64,000 nt of DNA, taken from sequence record PV245935.1, one strand, 5' to 3'. Positions 10,192-42,315 of this stretch are shown piece by piece. Positions within the stretch are counted from its first letter, which is position 1; every line of letters starts with the position of its first letter. Origin of the DNA: Escherichia phage kaset. A program made the translations under genes and the position numbers. The notes beneath the pieces are model-generated. The model was not told the origin of the DNA and did no database searches. It saw nothing but the letters and a program-made list of their open reading frames with translations.

Positions 10192-10196
10192 ATAAT

Positions 10197-10217
10197 TGCC
10201 GCCGTAACTGGCGGCCA
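10197..10217 (+). terminator. Stem-loop after sheath-like gene
   Basis: GCCGCC-GTAACT-GGCGGC hairpin immediately after stop; weak U-tract. Confidence 0.3.
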
Positions 10218-28530: not shown

Positions 28531-29088
28531 TTACTTTTTGCTTTTAGGCAAGGTTATTTTAGCTTCTTTATACTCAAAGACGCTAATATCTTCACTGACT
28601 GGATTACCCGCTTCCAGCTGTTCTTTTACGAATGACTTCAGTGTAGCAGAATGAACGCCTTGTTTCAACGTGGCTTCAATACCGTCTTCACGCAGCGCGG
28701 CAACAATCTCTTGCGCTTGCTCGATTTCTTCGCGACCGAACTCAGCCGTGACGCTGGACTTGATCAAGCCGCCGTAACCGTTGTTGACAAGCCAATCGAA
28801 TACTTTCAATTCATTTTCTTTCTTAATTGAAGCATTGACTTTTGACTCGACCTTGATTTTGGTCTTGTCTTCAAGCTTGATTTCGGACACGCCAAGCTCA
28901 TCCATAACGCCAGGAAGCAGAACAGTTTTGATTTCACTGATGCGCTGCTTTTGCATATCAGCTTCATCTTCAAGCTCTGTCAAAGCTTCTTGGCGTTCTG
29001 CCAATTCCGATACTAAGCGCGCAAGGCGCTCTTGGATGCTCTCAGGAGCGACCTGCGGCAAATCATCTTCCCAATTAATATTGCTCAT
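28531..29088 (-). CDS. Hypothetical protein
   Basis: ATG with RBS AAGAAGGT; start codon lies in first copy of a 52-bp tandem repeat. Confidence 0.5.
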   Translation of the reverse strand: MSNINWEDDLPQVAPESIQERLARLVSELAERQEALTELEDEADMQKQRISEIKTVLLPGVMDELGVSEIKLEDKTKIKVESKVNASIKKENELKVFDWLVNNGYGGLIKSSVTAEFGREEIEQAQEIVAALREDGIEATLKQGVHSATLKSFVKEQLEAGNPVSEDISVFEYKEAKITLPKSKK

Positions 29089-34897: not shown

Positions 34898-35449
34898 TTA
34901 TGCAGTGTACGGAGTGCCGTCTTGATTCAACCGCACGATGAATTTAAGGTCTACACCGATGATTTCACGCGTATCAAAGATCACATAGTTGTAACGACGC
35001 TGACCAGCAATATTTGGGTTGGTGTGAGAGTCAGTTACGACTTCCTGCGCAACCTGAATGCCTTCTTCTTTAAAGAACTTACGCCATTCAGCAAGTTCAG
35101 CGACAGTCACGTGCATACCAAGATGGCTGACCTGATTATCGTGCGCATCGAGCATGTCGATGTTTTCGTTGATCCAGTTGCAACCTTTTGTGTAGTCAAG
35201 AATTTCAAGTTCAAGAGGCTTGCCAGCGCCGCCATCGGTGCCGTTGCCAGCCTGATAGTTGAAGCGCAAGTCAGCTTCATTGGTGCAATCGTCGCGACGA
35301 CCTTTAAATTCATCAGCTTCAAATACGCGACCAGTAGCAACAACATGATCATGGAACCATTCTGTCAGGCCGATTTTGGCCAGAAAATCCTGTGCACGCT
35401 GAGCATCTGGAATTGACAGGGCGATTTGTTCAATTTTAAAGTGTGGCAT
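34898..35449 (-). CDS. VOC (glyoxalase/dioxygenase)-like fold protein, hypothetical
   Basis: Two beta-alpha-beta-like modules (IEQIALSIPDAQRAQDFLAKIGL; HLGMHVTVAEL) judged by eye. Confidence 0.45.
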   Translation of the reverse strand: MPHFKIEQIALSIPDAQRAQDFLAKIGLTEWFHDHVVATGRVFEADEFKGRRDDCTNEADLRFNYQAGNGTDGGAGKPLELEILDYTKGCNWINENIDMLDAHDNQVSHLGMHVTVAELAEWRKFFKEEGIQVAQEVVTDSHTNPNIAGQRRYNYVIFDTREIIGVDLKFIVRLNQDGTPYTA

Positions 35450-35469
35450 TTTGTTTCCTTAATTAAATA

Positions 35470-35685
35470 TTATTGATTAATTACTGTGTTGTCTTCGTCC
35501 TGTTTCTTTTCAGGAGCGGGTGTGACAACTTCAAATTTAGGTTTGGGCAATTCACCTTTAGCACCTGGGACTTCAACGACAATCTTTTTGTCAGGCTCAA
35601 CAGGATTTGGAACTTCAAATTTGATCGTGTATCCTAATACAACAAGAAGCACTAAACCGATTACCGCTACCCAGGCTTTGTTCAT
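35470..35685 (-). CDS. Small membrane-anchored protein, hypothetical
   Basis: N-terminal TM segment AWVAVIGLVLLVVLG, Pro/Lys-rich tail. Confidence 0.5.
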   Translation of the reverse strand: MNKAWVAVIGLVLLVVLGYTIKFEVPNPVEPDKKIVVEVPGAKGELPKPKFEVVTPAPEKKQDEDNTVINQ

Positions 35686-35688
35686 GAT

Positions 35689-36372
35689 TTATTTCCCAAA
35701 TGGAATATCAGTACCAGACATAAAGCGCCATGCGCCCGTAATTAAGATATGGCGAATGAAGTCAGCAATTACTTGCGGCTCAGTCTCCAATCCATTCATC
35801 AACGCCTTTTTCTGGTATTCAGCAGCATACTCAGGAGTCCAGCCGCGAGTCGCGCAAACAGCATCTTCAATCTGTTTAGACATACCAGTGCCGCGCAACT
35901 TGTTAGGACTAATAGAGAATACCGTGATCCCGTATTTAGGCGTAAGTTCGTGGGCCATCTGCTTACTGATCATAAGCGCAGCGGCCTTGGAAGCATTATA
36001 ACACAAGCTGGACGTCATAGGAATATGCGCAGCGTTGGAAACGATATTGATCACAAAACCTTTGTTGTCGATAAGACTTTTCAGTGTCGCCTGAGTCGTG
36101 TTAACGAAAGAGAAAGCGTTGGTATGCATAACGCGGTTAAATTCTTCGTAGTTGACATCTTCAAACCAGTTGTTGGAGTTTACGCCAGCACAGTTGATCA
36201 AGCCTTCTACATCATATGGGCTTAAAATTTCTTTCATCTGTTTAGCGTCGCGGACGTCATATCCGTATGCTGAATCGATGCCAAGCACGTTATGACCGTA
36301 AGCGCCAAGGGTGTCAAAAATAGATTTACCAAGACCAGAATTGGAACCTGTTACAACAATTACTTTTTTCAT
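35689..36372 (-). CDS. Short-chain dehydrogenase/reductase (SDR) family oxidoreductase
   Basis: Rossmann motif VTGSNSGLG and catalytic YNASKAA (YxxxK). Confidence 0.7.
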   Translation of the reverse strand: MKKVIVVTGSNSGLGKSIFDTLGAYGHNVLGIDSAYGYDVRDAKQMKEILSPYDVEGLINCAGVNSNNWFEDVNYEEFNRVMHTNAFSFVNTTQATLKSLIDNKGFVINIVSNAAHIPMTSSLCYNASKAAALMISKQMAHELTPKYGITVFSISPNKLRGTGMSKQIEDAVCATRGWTPEYAAEYQKKALMNGLETEPQVIADFIRHILITGAWRFMSGTDIPFGK

Positions 36373-36437
36373 TTATTTATCCTTTTTGGACTTCGTTTCG
36401 ATGAGATAAATATAACTCATCGAAACGCACAAGTAAA

Positions 36438-37310
36438 CTATTTATTGAAATTAATATTGTGGGTGTTGACGAGACGTTCACACATGGCGCTGTAAACACC
36501 ATCATCGTGTATAGAGTCTTCGTGCTTCAGGCCGCTGATTGCGAAGCGTGTAAGCTTGACAATCTTAAGCTCGAACAGATGCCACATGTGGTAGTCTTCC
36601 GGCGTTTTCAACGTTACGCCATTAGGGAAAAGCACCTGCATAACCTGGCCAACCATCACGGCGTTATCGCCATAGACAGCGTTGCGCTCACGGAAGGTTG
36701 CCGCCATTGCATCAAGAATATCGGCGGCAGTGGCCGGAGATTGTTCAATTTCCACAGCCTTAGTCTCTTCTTGCCCTGTTGCGCTTGGATCAATTGCTAA
36801 TTGTTGCACCACTTCACCTGCCTTGCAAAGATTAAATGTAAAAGCGATTTTATTTTGAGCAACGGAATTATAATACAATGCTTCATCTTGCATCCGCGCG
36901 AGCACGTCTTGTCGGTCGTCGAATACATTGATGATTCGATAATCGCCGTGCCGCAATGCGTGCGATAGCCATGCAGATTTCATAATAGTTGATGGACGTT
37001 TGTCGCCATAGTCTCTCATCTTGATTGTAAATTCATCAAAAGGAAAAACATTGTCCAGACGTTCAAAAGTCACTTGTCTGTATTTTTCTGGCCTTGCAGT
37101 CCAATATTCAACCGCCTCACCGCGAAGAGATGCCGACTCTACTGCTGATGCAATGTGAGGATAGAACTGATCATAACCAATACCGCTGTGATAGTCATCA
37201 TAGTCTGACAACGGACCTGCCACCTTGATGCGGTCTAAGCGCCAACGGTCATCAAACAGCGTTCCGTCAAGGTCGAATACGTTTAAGATTTCGCTGTTTT
37301 TAATGCTCAT
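36438..37310 (-). CDS. HAD-superfamily hydrolase domain protein with extra C-terminal domain
   Basis: Motif I VFDLDGTLFD (DxDGT); later VFDDRQD. Confidence 0.6.
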   Translation of the reverse strand: MSIKNSEILNVFDLDGTLFDDRWRLDRIKVAGPLSDYDDYHSGIGYDQFYPHIASAVESASLRGEAVEYWTARPEKYRQVTFERLDNVFPFDEFTIKMRDYGDKRPSTIMKSAWLSHALRHGDYRIINVFDDRQDVLARMQDEALYYNSVAQNKIAFTFNLCKAGEVVQQLAIDPSATGQEETKAVEIEQSPATAADILDAMAATFRERNAVYGDNAVMVGQVMQVLFPNGVTLKTPEDYHMWHLFELKIVKLTRFAISGLKHEDSIHDDGVYSAMCERLVNTHNINFNK

Positions 37311-38152
37311 CCTTTTGATACTCCATCTTTAGCGACTGGATTGTTGGTGATTGGCATCGCACTCCAAAACTGGATGCGCAACTCTTCTTGCTGTGCCGTG
37401 GTATCCATCCAATCACGATACCAAGGGCAATGTGCTTTACCGTGACGGGGAAATGCGCACTTACCCATACCGATGCATTGCGGCTGTAGTAAAGGATTAG
37501 CCCAAGGGTGCACCTTGAGGACTTCCGCAACCATTGCACGAAATACTTCTTGATACTCGCCTTGAGTGCGCGTGCACAAGCGGTTTGACGCCATCTGCTG
37601 CAGCGTGCGCAAGTTGAACTTTGCCATGATATGCGTTTGCATATTAGAAGGCAACACGGCACGTGCATCCTGAATCTCTGCGCCAGCCGCGCGAAGTTCT
37701 TGGTATAGGGCGTCAATGGTTGCCATTGCATCATCCCACTTCTCTGCCAGCACACTTCTTTTTTCAGAGTCCCAGTATCCTTCTTCATCCTGGTCGAAAA
37801 AGTCTTTTTTACCAAGATCATCTAAACTATCAAAATCACCATCCCTTTCAAATGCCTTCGGACGAATTGCATCAAACGCAGACGACTCCTGAGCGCGGCT
37901 AGTGCGTTCTTGATATGCGCCTGTGCGTGTGCGCACCATCTGATGGGTCATGTTCTTTGAAACATCAGTGATGTCAAAGATATAGTCCACAAAGTCAAAG
38001 GGCGACTTGATTGTATCAAGCATGTAGCGCCAGTGCTCTTGCTTCTCTGATTCTGTCATCTCAGAGACAGGCTTGCCAGTCATGCGCGTGTTCTTTGTTT
38101 CCAGCAAAAGGTCAAGTGCATCTTGGGTGTATCGAATTAATTCAACTTTCAT
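37307..38152 (-). CDS. ThyX-like flavin-dependent thymidylate synthase homolog (divergent)
   Basis: ARAVLPSNMQTHIMAKFNLRTLQQM resembles ThyX ARxVLPxN...NxRSL block; RHR-like motif present as RTRTGAYQERTSR. Confidence 0.55.
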   Translation of the reverse strand: MKVELIRYTQDALDLLLETKNTRMTGKPVSEMTESEKQEHWRYMLDTIKSPFDFVDYIFDITDVSKNMTHQMVRTRTGAYQERTSRAQESSAFDAIRPKAFERDGDFDSLDDLGKKDFFDQDEEGYWDSEKRSVLAEKWDDAMATIDALYQELRAAGAEIQDARAVLPSNMQTHIMAKFNLRTLQQMASNRLCTRTQGEYQEVFRAMVAEVLKVHPWANPLLQPQCIGMGKCAFPRHGKAHCPWYRDWMDTTAQQEELRIQFWSAMPITNNPVAKDGVSKG

Positions 38153-38166
38153 TTTAATTATTCCTA

Positions 38167-38613
38167 TTAACGGTAATTCACTAATTGCTGATCACCAGAG
38201 AAGGTGCAATGATAAACGAATTGTGCGTTGTAAAGCAACTGAAAACTTTTCTTTGGTTCACTATTAGCACTCATCGATGTGAATACTTCTGCACCGGAAC
38301 GGTTTTCACCAATCAGATTGATAAAGCCGCCAGTTGAACGAGGTTGAACGAAAGTGAAACGTTGCATCCACGGAGTCCGGTTGGCACCTTTACCCGTGAA
38401 TCCTTGAATCTGAATATTCAGACCTTCTTGCTCATTCACACCGATGTAAGTGGTAATCTTCGCACCAGTCGTTGCTGCGGTCTTGCCGTCCATCGCTTCG
38501 CAATCGTAAACAGCGATTGAATCGGAAGTACGGATGGCAGCTTCAGTCGCTTCCATATACATGGTGCCGAGAATAGCAGTTGCGGCAAGCGCGATTCCAG
38601 TGATTCGTTTCAT
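38167..38613 (-). CDS. Secreted protein with signal peptide, hypothetical
   Basis: N-terminus MKRITGIALAATAILGTMYMEA; two Cys residues. Confidence 0.5.
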   Translation of the reverse strand: MKRITGIALAATAILGTMYMEATEAAIRTSDSIAVYDCEAMDGKTAATTGAKITTYIGVNEQEGLNIQIQGFTGKGANRTPWMQRFTFVQPRSTGGFINLIGENRSGAEVFTSMSANSEPKKSFQLLYNAQFVYHCTFSGDQQLVNYR

Positions 38614-38677
38614 TTCGTTTCCTCTATGAGTTCTGCTTCAATGATTAAAGTATACGCCCATTGAAGCAGAAAGCAAA

Positions 38678-39673
38678 TTATTTATTGGCAATATAAGCAA
38701 ATTTTTGATAGTTATTTGCTTTGATGAGTTTTTCAACTTCAACAAGGTCATGAGCGACGTCATCAAGCAAAATGTTGCGCCAGGTAGCGAATCGACCAAC
38801 ACTAAACACGTTCAAATCCATAGTCAGCTGCAGGAGTAGGGCGTGTCGCAAGTCTTTCGGAATGTCGACAATCTTGCCATATTTCTGGTCGACCTTTTCA
38901 ACTTCTTCAAGAGCAATGTCACTCCATGAAAGGCCAAAGGCCGTCAACACTTCGTCGACTTCTGCGCGAAGCTTTATGTCACGGTAACGAGTGATGCCGC
39001 CAGCGGCTTCAACTGCAGCTTCACTTACGCTGACCAAAGGAATTGTTTCAATGATAAGCGTGTCACCAGTAATTGATGCGCGGTAAGTTCTGACTGAGTA
39101 GTCAGGGAAGTAAATTGTTTGATACAACTCACACTTACGTTTAATCTTAAAGCGGTAAACACGAATGTTTGCTTTATCAAATGAGAAATCAAGCTTTTGA
39201 TCAATCCCAGCAAGCTTCAGCATGACTGGCAGCGGCGATGTGTTGATGATTGGCGTCTCGCTATAGCCGCAAAGAGTATCAACCGGAGTATTAAAGAATA
39301 TGCGGTCACCCAGTTTGTCGACAAGCTGATCATAAAAGTCATCAGGCGCAATATAACGCGTTGCAGTTTTAAGCTTCATGATTGAACGGCTGCCAAACTG
39401 ATTGGTGACCTTCATGGAATACATATTGGCAAGGTTAATTGGGCAATGGTCGTGGTAGTAGTTGCCGCGAAAATACACAGCCTTGTCAACTGTCACGGCC
39501 TTAAAGGGGATTCCGGTAATACGGCTTACTTCTTCGCCACGGAAGCGTAGCAACGCCTTGTGCTGTTGCGCCCGTTCCCCTGCTTCGTACACAATAGAGT
39601 TCGGGAAGTGACACGCTGTGATAAGTCCTGCCAGTCCGCCGCCGATAATCATTACAGGTTGTTTCATGTTCAT
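38678..39673 (-). CDS. FAD/NAD(P)-binding oxidoreductase
   Basis: N-terminal dinucleotide-binding motif VMIIGGGLAGL (GxGxxG). Confidence 0.6.
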   Translation of the reverse strand: MNMKQPVMIIGGGLAGLITACHFPNSIVYEAGERAQQHKALLRFRGEEVSRITGIPFKAVTVDKAVYFRGNYYHDHCPINLANMYSMKVTNQFGSRSIMKLKTATRYIAPDDFYDQLVDKLGDRIFFNTPVDTLCGYSETPIINTSPLPVMLKLAGIDQKLDFSFDKANIRVYRFKIKRKCELYQTIYFPDYSVRTYRASITGDTLIIETIPLVSVSEAAVEAAGGITRYRDIKLRAEVDEVLTAFGLSWSDIALEEVEKVDQKYGKIVDIPKDLRHALLLQLTMDLNVFSVGRFATWRNILLDDVAHDLVEVEKLIKANNYQKFAYIANK

Positions 39674-39805
39674 TTGTCCTTTGTGGGTGATATGAGAAGT
39701 ATAATAGCTAAATTATTTTACAGCAACAAGTCATTTTATTTAGTACAGATGAAAAAAGACCCACAACAAGTGTGGGTCAATTACCGCTGCATAACCGTCC
39801 TAAGG

Positions 39806-40651
39806 TTATTCCGCTTGATCACCGTCTTCGGCATCGTCGTTGGATTCAACATCGACAAACTCGATGTGGCCCATCTCTTCCAGCTTGCTCAGGTAGGAGC
39901 GAACGGAAGCGCCAAACAGTTGATCTTTAACTTTTTCGCCCAGCTCATCGATAGACTGCGCCACGCCAACTTCGCCTTCTTTGATCGCCGCTAGAACGCG
40001 TCCACGGGTGGAATGCTCTTGCGGCTGGCTCAGGCCATTGCCAGTGTAGATGAAGTGGGTTGCTTTTGCACGACGCTGACCGTTTGCCTTTTTAGCAGCC
40101 TTACGTTCTGCGATGGCTTTGCGACGTTCTTCAGCTTCTTGCTTACGCTGTTCTTTCTGCTGTTCTGCAGCTTCTTTTGCCGCAATCTTAGCAGCTTCAC
40201 GCTCTGCCTTGCGTTTCGCTTTAGCTTCTTCTTTGGCCTTCTCTTTTTCGGCCTTCGCTGCAGCACGGGCTTGATCACGCTCTGCTTTCTTAGCAGCAGC
40301 TTGTTCAGCTTTCAGGCGCTTGGCTTCTTCTTTAGCCTTTGCCTTTTCGATTTCTTTCGCTGCTTTAGCGGCTTCACGCTCTGCTTTCTTAGCAGCAGCC
40401 TTTTCTGCGCGCTCTTTGGCCTTCTTAGCTGCTTCTTCAGCACGCTTCTGAGCCTTCTCATCAGCAGCCTGCTTGCGTTTCAGTGCAGCTTCTTCACGCT
40501 TGGCTTGTTTTTCCTGCTCACGCTTCTGGCGTTTTTCTTCGGCTTCTTTCTTTTTAGCCAGGCGTTTTTCTTCAGCCACGCGACGACGTTCTGCTGCAGC
40601 TGCTTGTTTTTCTTCTTTAGATAATACTTTGATTGCTTCGGCCATGTTCAC
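39806..40651 (-). CDS. Highly charged Lys/Ala/Glu-repeat protein with globular C-terminal domain
   Basis: About 200 aa of KAE-rich low-complexity repeats (AEEKR, KAKEEAK) then acidic tail; nucleotide-level repeats gcttctttagc. Confidence 0.5.
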   Translation of the reverse strand: MNMAEAIKVLSKEEKQAAAAERRRVAEEKRLAKKKEAEEKRQKREQEKQAKREEAALKRKQAADEKAQKRAEEAAKKAKERAEKAAAKKAEREAAKAAKEIEKAKAKEEAKRLKAEQAAAKKAERDQARAAAKAEKEKAKEEAKAKRKAEREAAKIAAKEAAEQQKEQRKQEAEERRKAIAERKAAKKANGQRRAKATHFIYTGNGLSQPQEHSTRGRVLAAIKEGEVGVAQSIDELGEKVKDQLFGASVRSYLSKLEEMGHIEFVDVESNDDAEDGDQAE

Positions 40652-40804
40652 AGTCCTTAAATAAATTAGTTTATTTTATATTCCCCGTTTGGGATAACTT
40701 AATTATGCCTTCAGTCGCCGCCAGTAGCAACTAAAAACTCTGGCGGCAATGCCACTTTAATTAAACTGATTTTCAGTTTTATTTTTCGTAAATTTACGTC
40801 AACA

Positions 40805-41989
40805 TTAACGCGCTTTCAAATCACGGTACACGGTCAGATTCTTTTTAGCGCGGGTGATGGCGGTGTACATCATCTTGGAGTACGGAACGCCGCGCAAGAT
40901 TTCTTCCAGCACGCACACATTGTCCCACTCGCTGCCTTGCGATTTGTGCACCGTTATGACATAGCCATAGTCCATGCCTCCAACAGCGCGTTGGGCCTCT
41001 TTGCGCACTTCCTGATCAGTAGAGAAGGAAAGAGGATTTATCTTCACCTTTATATCTTTGCCATCGGTAAGCGAGCGCAAATTGACATACATTATTTCAT
41101 TGGACTCGTCTTCATCCCTTTCAAAGTCCGGTACTGGCTCATAACTAATAACAATCCCTTGCTCGCCATTACAGAATCCTGGACCGTGTTGGTTGAATGT
41201 GCAAATAACTTTCTCGCCGATTCCTGGCATTGGCGTTATACGTCCGCTCACTTGGCGCAATAATGAATTCCATTTATCTTTGGTGCTATTATATGAGCAA
41301 ATAATTTGATCATCTTCGCCCATGAATTTCTTCAACGCAGTAACGCGCGGCGATTCAGCCAAAACCTTGACGTCATCGTATTCACGCGGAGGAAGTCGGT
41401 TGCCCTGTCGCACGAAGAAGGAAGCGCGGATTATGTTTGACTCTTTTCCTTGCCGCATGATTTCGGTTAACAGTACGTCAACGGCATCTTCAGTAAAGTA
41501 GGCGGCGGCTTTTACCGGAGGGACTTGTCCAATGTCGCCTAATGCCAGAACAGGGATGCGGTGATCAAGAAGGCGCTCTGTGTCCCACTCGCCAACCATT
41601 GAAGCTTCATCAAGGACGACAAGATGCGGCCTTTCATCAAGCGTTGACTTCCTTGCAAAGATTGGTTCATTGTCATCGTTAACGCCGCGCACGTTATAGA
41701 TGAACTGATGAAGGGTCTTAGCGCCACGACACCCTTTCTGCTTCAATCGGCTGGCGGCCTTTCCGGTCGGCGCAATATAAATGGCACCGTACTCACCGAC
41801 ACAACGGCGCACAATCTCACGCGCAATAGATGTTTTACCTGTTCCTGCATAGCCAGCGATGAAAAACACGCGCTTCGTTGTTTTACCGTCCTGCAATCGC
41901 TTGTACCATGCAACGGCCTTTTCGATGGCATCAATTTGTTGCGCGTTGAACTGAATCACTGGCTCATTATTAAATTCTGGAATGTTCAT
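40805..41989 (-). CDS. SF1B helicase, Dda/RecD-like
   Basis: Walker A AGYAGTGKT; VLDEASM (motif II); VHKSQGSEWDNV and TAITRAK (motifs V/VI). Confidence 0.7.
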   Translation of the reverse strand: MNIPEFNNEPVIQFNAQQIDAIEKAVAWYKRLQDGKTTKRVFFIAGYAGTGKTSIAREIVRRCVGEYGAIYIAPTGKAASRLKQKGCRGAKTLHQFIYNVRGVNDDNEPIFARKSTLDERPHLVVLDEASMVGEWDTERLLDHRIPVLALGDIGQVPPVKAAAYFTEDAVDVLLTEIMRQGKESNIIRASFFVRQGNRLPPREYDDVKVLAESPRVTALKKFMGEDDQIICSYNSTKDKWNSLLRQVSGRITPMPGIGEKVICTFNQHGPGFCNGEQGIVISYEPVPDFERDEDESNEIMYVNLRSLTDGKDIKVKINPLSFSTDQEVRKEAQRAVGGMDYGYVITVHKSQGSEWDNVCVLEEILRGVPYSKMMYTAITRAKKNLTVYRDLKAR

Positions 41990-42315
41990 TATAACTCCAC
42001 TACGCTTTCAAGGTCCAGATATACTGGAATAAAATGGCAATCTTCTTTTCGTTCAAACATCTCGCCGTCAACGTGACTGAAGAAGACAGTTGTGTTTGGT
42101 ATCTTCCACCCTTTCTCGTCGCGCACCAGGTACGCCATGGATTCAACAGGGATGTAAAGCGATACCGGATTCGCGGCAAAGATGAATTTGATTCTGTCTG
42201 GTTGACCCAGGAATCGCATAATTGTAAGACTTGAATTCAGTCTTGTATTAAGGAAGGACTCAACAATGCCGACGTGTGTTGCACGTTCGCGTTGCTTCGT
42301 ATCTTTTTCGTTCAT
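41989..42315 (-). CDS. Hypothetical protein
   Basis: 108 aa ORF, ATGA overlap with helicase gene. Confidence 0.5.
   Translation of the reverse strand: MNEKDTKQRERATHVGIVESFLNTRLNSSLTIMRFLGQPDRIKFIFAANPVSLYIPVESMAYLVRDEKGWKIPNTTVFFSHVDGEMFERKEDCHFIPVYLDLESVVEL

Follow-up and report, generated by a model that had tools for sequence, protein, structure and literature searches.

A predicted charge-striped helix joined to a winged-helix-like domain: a candidate DNA-architectural protein encoded beside the Dda-like helicase of Escherichia phage kaset

H-NS, MvaT, Lsr2, and Rok are DNA-bridging nucleoid proteins whose charge patterning is thought to be functional, and the DNA-binding domain of Rok is a winged helix. 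The plasmid protein KfrA combines a DNA-binding domain with a long Ala-rich helical tail, and helices built on 11-residue repeats are known from the group-3 late embryogenesis abundant (LEA) proteins, apolipoproteins, and alpha-synuclein. Here we describe a gene of Escherichia phage kaset (PV245935.1; the window analyzed is a stretch of 64,000 nucleotides) on the minus strand, immediately downstream of a Dda-like helicase gene, that encodes a Lys/Ala/Glu (KAE)-rich protein of the family PHROG 4765. We propose, and give an even chance of being correct, that its product is a non-enzymatic protein which binds nucleic acid, is abundant, has an architectural role in the phage genome, and can end up in virions. 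The existence of the gene is not new, since the family is catalogued and the protein has been seen by mass spectrometry (MS), and the protein is not a member of any described DNA-architectural family. What is new is the rejection of its common label as a TolA protein, the evidence for very high expression, and the strict linkage to the helicase, together with the charge pattern and the domain assignment described below.

This locus holds a 281-codon open reading frame (ORF; 39806-40651, minus strand), where an earlier sequence-only reading of the window had noted a highly charged, KAE-rich protein, and that composition is confirmed there. The likely start is the ATG at 40645-40643, because the Shine-Dalgarno sequence AAGGA is 8 nt from it and just 2 nt from the alternative GTG at 40651, and because the ortholog in phage Bas99 is annotated as 840 nt and 279 aa, the length of the ATG-start gene. 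The 279-aa product, ending at a TAA stop (39806-39808), has a calculated mass of 31.1 kDa (31,130 Da) and a pI of 9.6. The gene differs from that of Bas99 at 22 nucleotides, 21 of them synonymous (13 of these fall in the KAE region) and one non-synonymous, and therefore the frame is translated and constrained. The gene is thus real, translated, and under strong purifying selection, and the concern that the ORF might be untranslated is excluded by the substitution pattern and by the detection of an ortholog by MS. An antisense ORF opposite the gene (40013-40624, plus strand, 203 aa, rich in F, L, S, and C) was rejected as a gene: it mirrors the repetitive GAA, GCT, and AAA codons, and the substitutions fit the minus-strand frame.

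The proposal that the protein binds nucleic acid is based on its C-terminal part. Residues 186-263 are of ordinary mixed composition, and residues 264-279 contain eight D/E and zero K/R, so that the non-repetitive domain of about 90 aa with an acidic tail described by the sequence-only reading is present, with sizes refined to 78 and 16 residues. Modelled alone, the C-terminal domain has a predicted local distance difference test (pLDDT) value of 88 and a predicted template modelling (pTM) score of 0.78. The model contains three helices and a small beta-sheet (H1-beta1-H2-H3-beta2), as in winged helix-turn-helix (wHTH) domains, the full order of elements being beta0, the loop GLSxPQxxSxRG, H1, beta1, H2, H3 (SVRSYLSKLEEMGH), and beta2. 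By this model, which is structurally similar to solved winged helices, the domain is a divergent winged helix with the N-terminal strand in place of the second wing strand, a new assignment for a PHROG 4765 protein. Conservation in the family runs from RRxKATH through GLSxPQxxSxRGxV to LYGxSVRSxLSKLEExGHxDF and includes the polar or basic residues R191, R192, S212, R214, R249, K254, and H260. The RRxKATH motif of the arm is near-invariant, with GRRPK in many homologs, and an Arg-rich arm beside a wHTH domain commonly contacts the minor groove or the backbone. H3 (S-V-R-S-Y-L-S-K-L-E-E-M-G-H-I) presumably fits the usual recognition-helix pattern of wHTH regulators. Because the winged helix is the commonest nucleic-acid-binding fold, a nucleic-acid-binding role is reasonable for a protein with this predicted fold, and from the fold and the conserved residues we infer that the target would be DNA.

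Structure and profile searches place the domain in no family other than its own. Foldseek found no solved structure below E = 0.3, and its only matches among viral models were members of this family, annotated as 'TolA protein' or 'putative structural protein'. Pfam gave no family at E ≤ 1 for the window protein and none that was consistent across 34 family members, and PDB profile searches gave nothing below E = 0.05; sub-threshold sequence or profile matches to the PDB entries for JUBO2, PAP7, an HU-like 'DNA-binding protein' (E = 0.05), and PadR (E = 0.6) were treated as chance. Nor did the profile searches uncover the known repeat family with a mundane role that the sequence-only reading had named as a possible refutation, the sole match being PHROG 4765, of unknown function. 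In shape the domain comes closest to an insert domain found in type-2 methionine aminopeptidase, Ebp1, and Arx1, proteins that dock on ribosomes, and the protein might then be an RNA- or ribosome-binding factor with its Lys-rich helix on rRNA. The Foldseek E-values of 0.3-1 are not significant, however, sequence identity is 6-18%, and the gene is located in a DNA replication module, and we consider such a function very improbable.

The second unusual part of the protein is the charged region at the N-terminus. Residues 1-185 consist of 30% A, 24% K, 21% E, 11% R, and 6.5% Q (K+R 35%, E+D 22%, bulky hydrophobic residues 6%) with a net charge of +23, and the KAE-rich stretch estimated earlier at about 200 residues is therefore 185 residues long. 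AlphaFold2, run with an 11-sequence alignment, predicts a single uninterrupted helix of 177 residues (block pLDDT 75-98), the length of which (Table 1) was computed at 1.5 Angstrom per residue. The sequence had been described as near-periodic, and it is, far beyond chance: residue autocorrelation has maxima at lags of 7-8, 11, 15, 18-19, 22, 26, 33, and 37, and Fourier analysis gives a maximum at 11/3 = 3.67 residues with z ~17 for K/R and ~9 for E/D relative to shuffles. In the same analysis neither Ala nor the hydrophobic residues are periodic at 3.5-3.67 (at 3.5, z = -0.8 to -0.9). When the sequence is written in rows of 11 (hendecads), K/R fall on positions 1, 2, 5, and 9, which span an arc of ~100 degrees, E/D fall on the opposite face at positions 4, 7, 10, and 11, and Ala is scattered across all positions. 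Along the whole helix the K/R phase drifts slowly while remaining about opposite E/D. This conserved hendecad pattern of opposed charge stripes is a new observation. The K/R periodicity is found in nearly all homologs (z up to 30), with z = 16.5 in gp67 of Pseudomonas phage 14-1 and z > 6 in 22 of 25 distinct homologs from IMG/VR, even though the N-terminal regions are barely alignable, range from ~30 to 270 residues in length, and conserve only composition; the net charge of the helix ranges from +2 to +26 across 25 homologs.

The helix does not conform to the classes that its composition brings to mind. A canonical coiled coil is unlikely because a hydrophobic a/d seam is absent, and there is no heptad (3.5) periodicity. 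The sequence-only reading had suggested a single alpha-helix (SAH) or a histone-tail-like protein. Of the first, what stands is one long, continuous predicted helix rich in E, K, and R and poor in hydrophobic residues; it is not a classical ER/K SAH, as E-to-K/R pairs at i+4 are not enriched (12 observed versus 14.0 ± 2.7 expected) and the charges are on opposite faces and not spread round the helix. The i+4 pairs that are enriched are those from K/R to E (22 observed versus 13.9 ± 2.7 expected). The second does not hold, as acidic residues make up 22% of the region and a helix is predicted for it. The matching short repeats in the DNA are present to some extent, as imperfect dispersed repeats spaced 33, 99, and 198 nt (11, 33, and 66 aa), but they are weak, and a true tandem array was rejected since Tandem Repeats Finder reports only one 15-nt x 2 repeat in the gene. 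Many homologs, although not the window protein, start with a His-rich tip (MSHGHHHH..., MSHAHGHHHNHEHH...) before the charged helix (proteins P0008-P0012, P0020, P0025, P0026, and P0033; loci L024, L028, L029, L044, L045, and L049), a sequence that hints at metal binding or pH sensing at this end. The charge-striped 11-residue design is a clean natural case for questions in protein design and polyelectrolyte behavior, and it raises the question of how one helix with a basic and an acidic face behaves toward DNA or toward itself.

The expression signals and the codon usage of the gene both bear on its abundance. Its optimal-codon fraction (0.711) is the highest of the 76 ORFs in the window (mean 0.50, sd 0.08), with 0.696 for the major head protein. 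The 25 Arg codons are all CGT or CGC, as in the capsid gene, 78% of the Glu codons are GAA, and 71% of the Ala codons are GCT or GCA. Its codon choice matches the capsid and sheath genes, unlike the neighboring helicase and polymerase genes, and since it is the synonymous choices for Arg, Glu, and Ala that match, the score does not merely reflect amino acid composition. Judged by its codons, the gene is apparently among the most strongly expressed of the phage. A strong intrinsic terminator follows the gene and is found at the same position in phages LBL3 (where it is annotated) and 14-1. In all 25 IMG/VR homologs examined, stable hairpins lie 3' of the coding sequence. The gene that comes next in the window has a TTGCTG-N17-TATACT of its own. 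Upstream, besides a strong Shine-Dalgarno sequence, a candidate promoter sits in the gap of 159 nt that separates the gene from that of the Dda-like helicase, in a region that is 99% identical in Bas99.

The same gap contains an 8-bp inverted repeat over the -35 hexamer, which may serve as an operator or may form the hairpin at the 3' end of the helicase mRNA. Its octamer (GCCGCCAG/CTGGCGGC) occurs 13 times in the window versus 1.7 expected. This excess, the repeat over the gene's own promoter, the lack of an annotated transcription factor in Bas99, and the resemblance of H3 to wHTH recognition helices would all fit a sequence-specific transcription regulator, a helix-dimerised wHTH factor controlling middle or late genes or its own gene. 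A weak match to Csa3 adds to these (PADLOC; sub-threshold, E = 0.014, at the C-terminal end of the profile, the matched segment of which we take to be the wHTH region of Csa3). Yet most octamer copies lie inside coding regions, charged helices of 180 residues that lack a hydrophobic seam are not known as dimerisation devices, and such regulators are rarely a phage's most codon-optimised gene or among the top MS signals of its virions, and a regulatory function therefore seems to us decidedly improbable. At 10 of the 13 sites the sense strand of the local genes carries the octamer as CTGGCGGC. Two intergenic sites, 40717-40747 and 10196-10217, have it in GC-rich inverted repeats, the latter (TTGCCGCC-gtaa-CTGGCGGCC) just after the tail sheath gene. 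The octamer may reflect codon bias, or it may act as a terminator, an RNA element, or a site bound by a protein.

Orthologs of the protein have been recovered with virions. Liquid chromatography-tandem mass spectrometry (LC-MS/MS) has been applied to CsCl-purified particles of two Wifceviruses, vB_Eco4M-7 and ECML-117, and the ortholog ('TolA protein', 31.1 kDa) was detected in both (PMC7048862). In vB_Eco4M-7 it was represented by 7 peptides with 25.8% coverage and a score of 1197.6, the 7th highest of 33 and above those of the portal, capsid, and sheath, while ECML-117 gave 2 peptides (PMC7048862). The observed coverage is near that of the four large C-terminal tryptic peptides (~70 residues), because trypsin cuts the KAE region mostly below a detectable size. 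In the GenBank record of the Pbunavirus LBL3, the homolog ORF66 is the only one of 22 proteins labelled 'putative structural protein' that lies outside the structural module. The LBL3 study of Ceyssens and colleagues from 2009 is reported to have identified 22 virion proteins by MS.

Based on these data we put forward a hypothetical mechanism in which the protein is a form of phage 'chromatin', or a genome-coating accessory of the replication module. Large amounts would be made from its own promoter-to-terminator unit beside the Dda-like helicase. The C-terminal winged helix and the basic RRxKATH arm would dock on DNA, while the basic face of the 26-nm helix would lie along neighboring DNA, pair with the acidic face of another copy, or both, and the pairing of basic and acidic faces would allow copies to assemble side by side. 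The disordered acidic tail would compete with DNA for the basic surfaces and so tune binding, or would recruit a partner. The protein would then stay on the phage DNA and so be recovered in purified virions. Hence, its recovery in virion preparations would follow from abundance together with the proposed affinity for DNA, which would also, if weakly, explain its absence from DNA-free ghost particles. In this proposal the roles of the stripes and the tail, and a location inside the capsid, are inferred.

Several points weigh against an architectural function. A helicase, a glyoxalase-like protein, and a reductase appear in the same MS lists (PMC7048862), so not all of the proteins detected are virion components, and the association with virions may reflect mere abundance and stickiness. 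For the Pbunavirus SCUT-S1, the proteins listed by MS in DNA-free ghost particles do not include this one, and the text searched in the E217 and Pa193 cryo-electron microscopy (cryo-EM) papers makes no mention of it; the abstract of the E217 study refers to 19 gene products built. The 41 acidic residues in the helix are unusual for a DNA-coating tail. No sequence profile among Pfam, NCBIfam, and the PDB profiles puts the domain in a known HTH family, and winged helices also serve as protein-binding modules, as in RPA32C, Scc1, and the N-terminal domain of MotA. The phase of the stripes relative to the RR anchor is alike in most homologs, but the statistic (mean resultant 0.87-0.92) is inflated by the kinship of the sequences and, because they are related, the agreement is only suggestive and carries no valid probability.

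That winged helices and acidic tails bind proteins also leads to a replisome adaptor, or an accessory akin to a single-stranded DNA-binding protein (SSB), which would tether the Dda-like helicase, the primase, or the alpha subunit of DNA polymerase III (Pol III alpha) with the long helix as a spacer. Models for such a function are RPA32C and the acidic C-terminal tails of T4 gp32, T7 gp2.5, and E. coli SSB; the last 16 residues of the protein are of this acidic type, and the complete Bas99 genome annotation contains no SSB, clamp, loader, or transcription factor. Although an acidic tail is present in all 25 distinct IMG/VR homologs, its sequence is not conserved and it is without a terminal aromatic or hydrophobic tip. 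The only folded domain in the model is the winged helix, so that there is no oligonucleotide/oligosaccharide-binding (OB) fold and an OB-fold SSB was rejected. Moreover, the capsid-like codon usage and the high MS score imply stoichiometric abundance and not the copy number of a replisome component, and we regard an adaptor as a minority possibility.

A more far-reaching version of the architectural proposal is that the protein is packaged with the DNA as a genome coat and enters the host with it, or re-coats it at once, with the basic-striped helix lying along the duplex and shielding it from restriction enzymes and DNA-sensing defenses. We think this unlikely, but, if true, it would be a histone-like, protein-based form of genome protection common to the therapeutic Pbunavirus phages. 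Wifceviruses are very fast, and a co-packaged coat would bear on their insensitivity to restriction-modification (RM) and other defenses. High expression, a predicted winged helix combined with a unique, conserved hendecad pattern of opposed charge stripes, and co-purification with virions together make the protein a testable candidate for phage chromatin or genome protection.

The names under which the gene has been deposited point elsewhere. In Wifcevirus records it is labelled 'hypothetical protein' or 'TolA protein', and across the databases a core Wifcevirus gene passes as TolA, as a hydrolase of the cell wall, or as a structural protein, or stays hypothetical. A homolog or mimic of TolA acting in the cell envelope, as implied by the GenBank labels 'TolA protein' and 'putative cell wall associated hydrolase', has on its side that several records bear the name, that the composition resembles TolA domain II, an Ala/Lys/Glu-rich, long, helical, low-complexity region (A 39%, K 19%, E 15%), and that an uncorrected BLAST search gives E = 1e-32. 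With composition-based statistics this similarity is lost: the best BLASTP match to MG1655 TolA has E = 0.075, and only domain II aligns. Domain II is without the 3.67-residue charge periodicity (z = 0.2 versus 17), the gene is without tol-pal context, no Pfam model matches at E ≤ 1, and no TolA NCBIfam is among the matches at E ≤ 1. The N-terminus (MAEAIKVLSKEEKQAAAAERRR) has no hydrophobic anchor or signal peptide, the few bulky hydrophobic residues of the first 185 forming no stretch, and the C-terminal domain is modelled as a winged helix and not as TolA domain III. The label is wrong because there is no anchor, no domain III, no profile match, and no similarity that survives correction; on these sequence comparisons the TolA reading is effectively refuted, we give it next to no credence, and the name is a compositional artefact.

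The family to which the protein does belong is small and in essence restricted to phages. The window protein matches PHROG 4765 over residues 1-279 (E = 2.7e-84), and so do its C-terminal 94 aa alone (E = 7.5e-47) and its distant relatives. The region 39000-42000 is 95-98% identical to 28 sequenced Wifcevirus phages, E. coli and Shigella myoviruses of 66-72 kb, among them ECML-117, FEC19, WFH, and BASEL phages Bas99 and Bas100. Because a word-indexed protein search was swamped by low complexity (8 matches in 8000 candidates), an exhaustive profile search of 1.84 billion cluster representatives was used instead, and it found only 38 clusters, with the domain C-terminal in each. By tblastn the family is present in 356 phage records, 293 from Pseudomonas (Pbunavirus), 26 from Escherichia, and the remainder from Serratia, Burkholderia, Xanthomonas, Pantoea, and Aeromonas, and 35 IMG/VR loci carry it. 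The sequence-only reading had called such proteins uncommon in phage replication modules; in this lineage it is not uncommon but a core syntenic gene of Wifcevirus, Pbunavirus, and their relatives. Scanning 185,579 genomes of bacterial and archaeal species by pattern returned one 506-bp contig only (L016, NZ_JPLE01000168.1, 'Xanthomonas pisi DSM 18956'). This contig is 100% identical to the E. coli phage sequence over a stretch of the C-terminal domain and is most likely phage or sample contamination of the assembly, and the family therefore appears to be confined to virulent phages; a prophage or bacterial origin was rejected.

The gene lies directly downstream of a Dda/RecD-like helicase gene in every locus with enough flanking sequence but one. 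The exception is the small contig L025, which has only a partial Dda match, encoded on the opposite strand. The gene order is a divergent RepB-type primase, a small ORF, the Dda-like helicase, the present gene, and its terminator, followed by a 330-aa PHROG 4828 protein, the cluster with the thymidylate synthase ThyX, an RNase T-like exonuclease, and Pol III alpha. Distant members without the KAE helix are still found in the Pol III-alpha module. Four of these (P0038, P0040, P0042, and P0043, the locus being L009) have another N-terminal domain with the motif TYNALTGKxVKRFESRAIAE and a weak match to PHROG 4730; the siphovirus-like contig L009 carries RepB-primase, ThyX, PNKP-HAD, a short-chain dehydrogenase, RNase T, and Pol III alpha. 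In the window the helicase gene (40805-41989, minus strand) is preceded by a 108-aa ORF (41989-42315, minus strand) without a Pfam or PHROG match. This ORF shares one base with the start of the helicase gene (ATGA-type coupling), and related phages have a small ORF in the same place.

Two other groups of genes in the window deserve mention. The conserved cluster downstream of the gene (34898-39673, minus strand) encodes a 331-aa PHROG 4828 protein (in one record a UDP-galactopyranose mutase), an ORF of 148 aa whose N-terminus resembles a signal peptide and which matches no family, a ThyX-type thymidylate synthase, a PNKP/HAD-like protein, a FabG-like short-chain dehydrogenase, and a glyoxalase-like protein. 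From these predicted functions it could be a nucleotide or DNA modification pathway, in which case it too would bear on the RM insensitivity reported for Wifceviruses. A Pam3_Gp34-like protein (286 aa, PF23977; 27611-28471, minus strand) has an optimal-codon fraction of 0.696, equal to that of the major head protein, and its neighbor is a DUF7307 (Pam3 gp33-like) protein (28531-29088, minus strand). The pair lies beside the replicative helicase, outside the structural module, and is also present in a distant 68-kb phage, and proteins matching the masses of the two (31.2 and 20.7 kDa) are found in CsCl-purified Wifcevirus particles (PMC7048862).

Table 1. Position and basis of the features of the gene, its product, and its flanking signals, in window coordinates.
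Feature	Position	Strand	Basis
Strong intrinsic terminator, GACCCACA-cttgt-TGTGGGTC + TTTTTT	39748..39778	-	Terminator scan; 27 nt after stop
Complete coding sequence	39806..40645	-	ORF list, ATG and ribosome-binding site, Bas99 substitutions, PHROG 4765, MS of ortholog
Acidic C-terminal tail, residues 265-279 (DVESNDDAEDGDQAE)	39809..39853	-	Composition; pLDDT < 50
Winged-helix-like domain, residues 198-264	39854..40054	-	Predicted structure, family conservation
Basic linker/arm, residues 187-197 (ANGQRRAKATH)	40055..40087	-	Near-invariant R191/R192; pLDDT dip ~70
N-terminal charged helix (predicted), residues 10-186, ~26 nm if straight	40088..40618	-	AlphaFold2, composition, periodicity
Shine-Dalgarno sequence AAGGA	40654..40658	-	Read from sequence; 8 nt upstream of ATG
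Sigma-70-like promoter candidate, TTGCTA-N17-CATAAT	40702..40730	-	Consensus match only, 9/12
Inverted repeat, GCCGCCAG-N15-CTGGCGGC	40717..40747	.	Read from sequence; overlaps -35 hexamer

Among known systems, the protein is at home in PHROG 4765, its own family, the members of which (Pbunavirus LBL3 ORF66, 14-1 gp67, Pa193 gp84, and the proteins of Serratia phage MTx and Burkholderia phage BcepF1, the last named 'TolA protein') have the same architecture, the same site after a Dda-like helicase, and a terminator after the gene, with no difference from it. With wHTH proteins of the MarR, ArsR, Fur, and BlaI types it would share the H1-beta-H2-H3-beta core, the H3 motif xSVRxxLxKLEExGhh, and the weak resemblance to Csa3, but beta0 stands in for the second wing strand, a long loop joins H2 to H3, and no HTH-clan profile matches. 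The helix is like an ER/K SAH in being long, hydrophobic-poor, highly charged, and predicted to stand alone, and differs in that E-to-K pairing at i+4 is not enriched. It shares an 11-residue repeat with LEA-3 and apolipoprotein-type helices, although, unlike the lipid-binding 11-mers, it has no apolar face, and there is no LEA_4 Pfam match. Linker histones H1 and H5 also join a winged helix to a long Lys/Ala-rich extension, and the globular domain of yeast H1 is at Foldseek rank 20 (E = 2.8). There is no Linker_histone Pfam match for the protein, and the H1 tail is acid-free, Pro-containing, and disordered, whereas the present one is 22% acidic and predicted to be a single striped helix. Relative to H-NS and Rok, its helix is 5-10 times longer than their oligomerisation domain and without a hydrophobic seam, and there is no sequence relationship; relative to KfrA, the order of domains is reversed and an acidic tail is added. 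What the protein would have in common with H-NS, MvaT, Lsr2, Rok, and KfrA is the overall plan, namely a helical part for self-association or spacing, together with a basic linker and a small domain that binds DNA, the last being a prediction here.

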